Part shown: positions 25,290-25,939 of the stretch, in pieces | Layout of the letters: each line of letters starts with the position of its first letter | How positions within the stretch are numbered: position 1 is the stretch's first letter | Source of the DNA: Eledone cirrhosa | Lineage: Eukaryota | DNA: 64,000 nucleotides | Direction: 5' to 3' | Assembly: GCA_964016885.1 (NCBI GenBank) | Contig: OZ024762.1 | Coordinates: forward strand, 22,010,001 to 22,074,000 | Program-made: the position numbers and the translations under genes | The notes under the pieces: generated by a model | The model's database searches: none | The model's input: only the letters and a program-made list of their open reading frames with translations | Told to the model about the DNA's origin: nothing

Positions 25290-25939
25290 AAAAGGTATAT
25301 ATTGAGTTAGAAACTGAAAATAGTCTCCTACAATAAAATAGCTCTAGGAAAGAGATTTTTCCGAGCCGTATAATATAATAGAATATAAAAGAAAAACGAA
25401 CACAGATATATACATATATGTGTTCAAATCGTAAGGGACCAGATTCGCTAAGGTGAAAAGAATACTAACTATAGACAATAGGGTTTGCCAGACTCAATTT
25501 AAGAATAAATCAAGAAAATAAATACAAACCGGAATTGTGGTAACTACCAATCACCCAGACAACTTGGTAATGCTGTTTCGTAAAATTAATTGTGAAAGGA
25601 ATACCAATTCTTGCTCATCAGTGGGTGAAGAATTAGTATCCTGGACACTTCTAAGTATATTAAAAAACTGAATAGTGTGCGTAAATATAATAACGCACAT
25701 GGTATCTGAACTTAGCGAATCTCACAAACTCACCCCACTAAAAATAGCAGCCAGGTTTACTCGACATTTGAATTGGCTCATCAAATTCCGGTTTGTATTT
25801 ATTTTCTTGATTTATTCTTAAATTGAGTCTGGCAAACCCTATTGTCTATAGTTAGTATTCTTTTCACCTTAGCGAACCTGGTCCCTTACGATTTGAACAC
25901 ATATATGTATATATCTGTGTTCGTTTTTCTTTTATATTC

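Follow-up and report, generated by a model that had tools for sequence, protein, structure and literature searches.

A type I hammerhead motif within a high-copy, non-coding repeat family bearing Penelope-type insertion scars in Eledone cirrhosa

Introduction

Hammerheads in Penelope-type repeats (PLEs) and in retrozymes are well known, and the motif alone is ordinary. The account of PLEs in PMC8557442 gives an inverted truncated arm, a one-sided tail and a microsatellite target as marks of PLE insertion, and terms the function of the hammerhead in EN+ PLEs unclear. The one-sided tail has been explained by two internal starts of reverse transcription (RT) in PMC11167929; by that study's own account, RNA reads at the cut site were absent. 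Retrozymes, in turn, have been proposed to be non-autonomous PLEs derived from pLTRs (bioRxiv 10.64898/2026.07.22.740005), and the same source describes eight of nine Xenopus retrozyme dimers as showing no cleavage in vitro; a motif may thus look intact and yet fail to cut. According to PMC3088659, about 40% of hammerheads are predicted to form a pseudoknot between stems I and II.

Here we describe a hammerhead motif and the repeat family that carries it in a 64,000-nt stretch of the Eledone cirrhosa genome (GCA_964016885.1, contig OZ024762.1, positions 22,010,001 to 22,074,000; hereafter the window, numbered from its first letter). The window is AT-rich animal-type DNA, dense with microsatellites and repeats.

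Results

The hammerhead motif at 25551-25628

The motif is carried on the minus strand by the copy of the repeat referred to below as copy 1, and it is made up of the following parts.

25551 to 25628 (-), type I hammerhead motif, found as a match to a core and stem descriptor
25628 to 25622 (-), 5' strand of stem I, pairing with 25551 to 25557 in 7 pairs, all Watson-Crick
25621 to 25615 (-), core box CUGAUGA (C3 to A9), as read from the letters
25580 to 25614 (-), stem II and its long loop II, with G10.1-C11.1 (25614/25580) kept
25579 to 25576 (-), core box GAAA (G12 to A15.1), as read from the letters
25559 to 25576 (-), stem III, 5 bp (pairs AU, CG, AU, GU and CG) with an 8-nt non-palindromic loop
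25557 to 25558 (-), predicted cleavage site after GUC (C17 = 25558), at the hammerhead consensus position

With stem I open and stems II and III closed, the topology is that of type I, and the core C3UGANGA9, G12AAA and U16.1-H17 is present in full. This is the sole descriptor match in the 64,000-nt window. At a stringency of 7 bp in stem I and 5 bp in stem III, values taken from the motif itself and hence post hoc, none of 100 dinucleotide-shuffled windows contained a match; at the looser 4 and 3 bp, 6 of 100 did. The letters and the shuffled windows thus bear out a preliminary description of this locus, which had reported a consensus core, a 7-bp stem I, a 5-bp stem III and GUC, and its proposed cut between genomic 25558 and 25557 agrees with the position predicted from the hammerhead consensus. 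Where a minimal hammerhead has a helix III that is absent or tiny, with a palindromic loop, the motif here has a 5-bp helix III and a non-palindromic loop of 8 nt.

The word "textbook", also used in that description, goes too far. Pair 10.2-11.2 of stem II (25613/25581) is a C.A mismatch in copy 1, the lowest-energy nested fold differs from the hammerhead, and RAGATH-1-hammerhead, a model without the long loop II and the only Rfam family to match the motif, scores 19.3 bits, below its gathering threshold of 56.3 bits. The Rfam scan of the whole window was dominated by microsatellite matches to miRNA models. The mismatch is private to copy 1: the pairing letter accounts for 3582 of 3640 in contig depth in run X1 and for 9 of 9 reads in run X8, a reduced-representation run, and C-G stands at 10.2-11.2 of the family in 98% of X1 contig depth. 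Given this private mismatch, the hammerhead of copy 1 is probably a weak cutter. In stem III, the G.U pair at 25562 is replaced by G-C in 1679 of 6920 in X1 depth and in 25 of 52 X8 reads.

A chance match in AT-rich repeat DNA would agree with the sub-gathering Rfam score and with folding z-scores of -0.6 to -1.0, but it is very improbable and already largely refuted, as no shuffled window matched, as a second copy has the same core boxes though its loops differ, and as the motif sits in an element of PLE type, where hammerheads are expected. Read from its letters, 25551-25628 carries a real type I hammerhead motif, with cleavage predicted after C17.

A neighbouring copy with a truncated hammerhead

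The second copy, a neighbour of copy 1, has two arms.

26806 to 27136 (+), main arm of copy 2, 86% identical to copy 1 and 5'-truncated at U4 of the core
26742 to 26799 (-), short inverted arm of copy 2, without tail, found by self-comparison of the window

The two copies agree in both core boxes and in the initial 10 nt of loop II; elsewhere the loops differ. The preliminary description had likewise noted a kept core spacing and changing loops in copy 2; this copy nevertheless lacks C3 and half of stem I. Because it starts at U4, without C3 and the 5' strand of stem I, copy 2 cannot form the ribozyme. It also differs at two letters of the 3' strand of stem I, and it has an A.C mismatch in stem III. 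Its hammerhead is, on this reading, dead. The clean GCAA/TTGC base of stem II that had been noted in copy 2 is real, and it identifies copy 1 as the mutated one at that position.

Covariation support from this neighbour, which had been claimed as well, did not hold: none of 16 pairs is compensatory, and the covariation score is 0.063 against 0.126 in shuffles. No compensatory pair change was seen for any helix in the two-copy alignment or among the 40 of 163 difference rows listed, and the same 40 rows contain one-sided changes that keep the pair at 25562, 25581 and 25630.

Insertion scars and abundance of the family

The element around the motif has the following architecture.

25290 to 25783 (-), main arm of copy 1, about 494 nt of a non-coding unit of about 515 nt; GC 33%
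25784 to 25787 (no strand), 4-nt microhomology at the inversion junction, common to the inverted arm and the 5' region of the family
25784 to 25945 (+), tail-less inverted arm of copy 1, a 98% identical mirror of about 25536-25375
25290 to 25375 (-), tail of about 85 nt between two 3' termini, in the main arm only, delimited by a depth step and by loose ends at 25370-25388
25358 to 25369 (-), motif containing CGGCTC, immediately behind the inner 3' terminus; at the tandem junction, the letters after the outer terminus match it at 10 of 12 places when read by eye
25240 to 25290 (no strand), (TA)n microsatellite at the tail end, from the repeat scan
25943 to 25978 (no strand), (TA)n microsatellite at the end of the inverted arm, from the repeat scan

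Copies 1 and 2 are both inserted in (TA)n, their mirror arms stop about 85 nt before the main 3' end, and no target-site duplication is discernible at either. The inner terminus is visible in run X1 as an approximate doubling of depth, from 56,274 at 25373 to 101,524 at 25393, and loose ends running into TA occur at 25375-25383 in X1, X4 and X6. Both 3' termini fall in an AT run just 5' of a CGGCTC motif, which would mark this motif as the sign of an RT start. As judged from sequence, the two copies bear insertion scars of PLE type, and copy 1 reads as a dispersed, near-full-length monomer.

Sequencing runs show the family to be abundant. After filtering at 80%, the 501 bases of 25300-25800 were covered by 3411 contigs of run X1 and by 2871 reads of run X8, depths that do not equal copy number. 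A contig of run X6 that comes from another organism and covers the motif at depth 2 was excluded as independent support, together with runs of small share. Strand inversions at differing places make up 10 of the 15 joints listed (33 in total). DNA patterns of the family gave no matches in any of five scans of metagenome, prokaryote-genome and viral collections.

At the inversion junction, TGATGAG recurs, and a second hammerhead at 25783 was considered and rejected; no GAAA box follows, and other copies differ at 25781 (1852 of 1860 in X1 depth, 91 of 94 X8 reads). On the other side, copy 1 is adjoined by a small inverted-repeat element in TA at 25160-25247, present as a single copy in the window.

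Closure of the unit and absence of a coding frame

The preliminary description had pointed to about 150 nt 5' of the ribozyme. This leader exists (25629-25783), but it leads into the 3' end of the family itself, with no open reading frame in the records listed. Behind 25787, nine X1 contigs share one continuation with an agreement of 0.95, consisting of 30 letters, first 11 new ones and then 19 that equal the 3' end of copy 2 when compared by eye. A joint from 25787 to 25300 appears once among the 15 of 33 joints listed. As the continuation is the 3' end of the family, the unit forms a closed repeat of about 515 nt; the support for closure comes from one run, X1, with 9 contigs against 30 that cover 25781 and with 19 of 370 loose ends listed, and among the X8 loose ends listed none continues behind 25787. 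No tandem with two complete hammerheads is found in the window, and no piece listed has the length to span two motifs.

The longest stop-free run of the unit is 58 codons and its longest ATG frame is 49 codons. None of the 131 complex frames of the window matches an RT or GIY-YIG family, and neither the unit nor the window contains an RT/GIY-YIG frame that would represent a helper PLE. The leader as the C-terminus of a PLE protein was rejected, with no Pfam match to its longest frame and with a unit that closes on itself. The proposed use of 25630-25780 as a handle to a long autonomous parent is likewise not upheld, given a head-to-tail junction 11 nt beyond 25787 and an ATG frame this short. 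A type I hammerhead in a Penelope-type element, as first proposed, is supported in both motif and element type, but not in its covariation or its parent stub.

These observations bear on a competing explanation, in which the copies are 5'-truncated pseudo-LTR ends of an autonomous PLE of Neptune or Hydra type that favours (TA)n. On this view the 515-nt tandem would arise as a minor by-product, and the leader would correspond to the parental 3' UTR. Inversion, tail and truncation are also typical of autonomous PLEs in the description of PMC8557442, and with 19 of the 370 loose ends listed, copies running into an open reading frame may exist. Against this, the only continuation listed beyond 25787 is the 3' end of the unit itself, in nine contigs at 0.95 agreement and in one joint, and metazoan PLE hammerheads are described in PMC4209133 as mostly minimal, with helix III absent or small and palindromic, whereas stem III here has 5 bp. 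We regard an autonomous source as unlikely, if still to be taken seriously.

What is observed comprises the motif, a multicopy family, head-to-tail joins, varied inversions, two 3' termini, (TA)n sites and the lack of an open reading frame. The reading that we favour, and consider likely, places the type I hammerhead in a non-coding, high-copy, non-autonomous PLE derivative of about 515 nt. This element would be of non-LTR retrozyme type and would depend for its mobility on an RT/GIY-YIG protein supplied in trans by a PLE. Tandem loci would be transcribed, and a ribozyme of the family type (C10.2-G11.2, a stable 5-bp stem III and a non-palindromic loop) would cut as a monomer after GUC, yielding unit-length RNA, linear or circular. 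The PLE protein would then nick (TA)n and prime reverse transcription inside the RNA at either of two AT runs 5' of CGGCTC; two such alternative starts would account for the two 3' termini and the tail of about 85 nt. A second priming event or a template switch would build the inverted arm, in copy 1 with the help of the 4-nt microhomology.

Pairing between the leader and loop II

The leader and loop II contain complementary strands.

25629 to 25641 (-), leader strand, a 13-bp complement of 25611-25599, a candidate pseudoknot or inhibitory hairpin
25599 to 25611 (-), loop II partner of the leader strand; copy 2 has its first 10 nt unchanged and differs in the rest of the loop

The helix between leader 25641-25629 and loop II 25611-25599 comprises 13 bp with a predicted energy of -13.3 kcal/mol. 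In windows picked after the pairing had been seen, 19 of 20,000 shuffles reached 13 bp, and 500 of 20,000 reached the 10 bp kept in copy 2. A change of C to U at 25630, found in 547 of 9810 in X1 depth and in 8 of 26 X8 reads, keeps the pair as U.G. The helix has no base in common with stem I, stem III or a 3-bp stem II, and 16 nt of loop II remain to bridge it; it can therefore be a pseudoknot. In the favoured mechanism, this helix of 10-13 bp would most likely replace the usual contacts between loop I and loop II.

In nested folding, where pseudoknots are unscored, the hammerhead lies 5.0-8.6 kcal/mol above the free ensemble for four constructs of copy 1, and still 4.4 kcal/mol above it with the family letter at 11.2. 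The nested ground state is the leader/loop II hairpin, which excludes the ribozyme. Three roles of the helix can be weighed: an activating pseudoknot is slightly favoured, an off-switch appears a good deal less probable, and an incidental pairing is least expected of the three. The helix is a simple test case for pseudoknot versus off-switch. For the construct 25545-25635, which had been proposed for in vitro transcription and cleavage, the private mismatch and the shortening of the leader helix from 13 to 7 bp mean that a negative result would not refute activity of the family.

Two further pairings were seen around the ribozyme. Loop III could pair with the 3' tail (-6.9 kcal/mol), a pairing rejected for the active fold because, from known geometry, no linker would be left after stem I. 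The 6-nt strands 25638-25633 in the leader and 25569-25564 in loop III are similar, and each is complementary to two identical strands, 25607-25602 in loop II and 25550-25545 in the 3' tail, so that two pairing registers are possible.

The nested folds bear on a further competing explanation, in which the element is a passenger of PLE type whose hammerhead is kept off or is vestigial, with cleavage playing no part in copying. Such an element would suit the predicted ground state, in which the leader and loop II form a 13-bp hairpin and a further hairpin covers the 3' strand of stem I, and it would suit the bulk of the family depth, which lies 3' of the motif. It also has a parallel in PMC11167929, where hammerhead mutants of Anolis Poseidon are reported to leave insertion in vitro unaffected, and where cleavage required protein. 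Set against these points are one-sided changes that preserve pairs in stems II and III, core boxes free of differences among the 40 of 163 rows listed, and a leader helix compatible with the active fold. A silent hammerhead is, in our assessment, rather doubtful, and we retain the retrozyme-type derivative with a cutting family ribozyme as the preferred reading.

A depth step at the predicted cut site

In run X1, depth drops five-fold across the predicted cut, from 36,740 at 25551 to 6,920 at 25562. The leader regains a depth of only 10,000-17,000, compared with 44,000-49,000 for the tail. Run X8 has no such step, with 77 reads at 25551, 52 at 25562 and 173 at 25643. Among the loose ends at 25549-25568 are alternative stem III sequences. 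The step would fit copies made from self-cleaved RNA and serves as a lead only; it also fits diverged subfamilies lost to the 80% filter, the hammerhead region being variable. A proposal in which a PLE protein copies the family, starting at two internal places that share one motif, and in which a large share of the copies derive from self-cleaved RNA and so end at the cut site, is speculative, and we think it unlikely in this full form; if true, the life cycle of a retrozyme family would be recorded in its genomic copies.

Other repeats in the window

A second abundant family inserted in TA occurs at 27230-27437, 39054-40955, 54737-54944, 55019-55604, 11746-11939, 34554-34741 and 44471-44606, and has an inverted arm, a one-sided tail of about 80 nt, a 216-bp tandem array and PLE-like ends; no hammerhead core was seen in it in the core scan. 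A third family, palindromic, tailed and associated with (TA)n, lies at 10481-10906 and 43021-43475, with remnants at 28776-28938 and 63856-63955. Both of its arms contain a hammerhead-core-like CTGAGGA...GAAA (10806 and 43375 on the plus strand, 10670 and 43210 on the minus strand), a likeness in core letters alone. At 34005 on the minus strand, an element of about 33930-34235 between (TA)n runs holds a hammerhead of the minimal U3-A8 type. Its stem II base has 4 bp and its GAAA is followed by a palindromic CCGG, as described for the min-HHR of metazoan PLEs.

A SINE-like sequence occurs at 27561-27869 as two tandem copies with 91% identity over 128 nt, and we take this pair to be reminiscent of cephalopod repeats. 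A mariner-type transposase remnant at 37665-38473 (-) matches HTH_48 and HTH_32 below curated cut-offs, and related repeat copies at 6102-6272 (+) and 56437-56607 (-) carry a single C2H2 zinc-finger-like match that falls narrowly short of the Pfam cut-off. Minisatellites at 19699-20677, 9594-9985, 51659-52024 and 52551-52836 have periods of 123, 64, 31 and 21.

Discussion

The literature searched held no paper on this family, which may be present in Repbase, in Dfam or in the supplementary lists of PMC3088659, PMC4209133, PMC7229834 and PMC8557442.

The closest likeness is to metazoan non-LTR retrozymes as described by Cervera and de la Pena 2020 (PMC7229834) and by Li, Clavereau and Pollet 2026 (bioRxiv 10.64898/2026.07.22.740005), which share with the present family a non-coding unit, one type I hammerhead, a GC content below 50%, head-to-tail joins, dispersed monomers and the proposal of PLEs as helper. 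The mussel retrozyme motifs of PMC7229834 likewise lack archetypal loop 1/loop 2 nucleotides. The unit here is larger, about 515 nt compared with 150-450 bp in the metazoan retrozymes of PMC7229834, and its helix III has 5 bp, whereas 1-2 bp are given for metazoan retrozymes in the accounts cited. The PLE scars found here, namely the inverted arm, the tail and the (TA)n target, also set it apart, as word searches of PMC7229834 and bioRxiv 10.64898/2026.07.22.740005 returned no description of them. The likeness of the present unit to retrozymes is seen at the level of DNA.

The pseudo-LTR hammerheads of EN+ PLEs, as presented in PMC4209133, PMC8557442 and PMC11167929, share with the present element the type I topology, the inverted 5'-truncated arm, the one-sided tail and the microsatellite target, the last being a feature of Neptune, Hydra and Naiad elements. 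They differ in that the unit here has no open reading frame and a hammerhead that is not minimal, and in that its tail is about 85 nt long compared with the 30-40 bp given for EN+ PLEs. A large helix III is described in fungal and protist PLEs and not, in these accounts, in metazoan ones. The Chlamys elements of PMC8557442, such as MRC1, are alike in being putatively non-autonomous PLE derivatives with pLTRs and head-to-tail insertions; they are, however, green algal, and most are described there as lacking canonical hammerheads. With the pseudoknot-stabilised hammerheads of Perreault et al. 2011 (PMC3088659), the motif shares a short stem II and Watson-Crick pairs that join the side of stem I to that of stem II, but its predicted helix of 10-13 bp exceeds the 5-6 bp of the examples given there.

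The family adds a further case to a known kind of element, represented here by a damaged copy. It could help decide whether the hammerhead acts in vivo, and whether PLE proteins insert retrozymes, as the scars here say.
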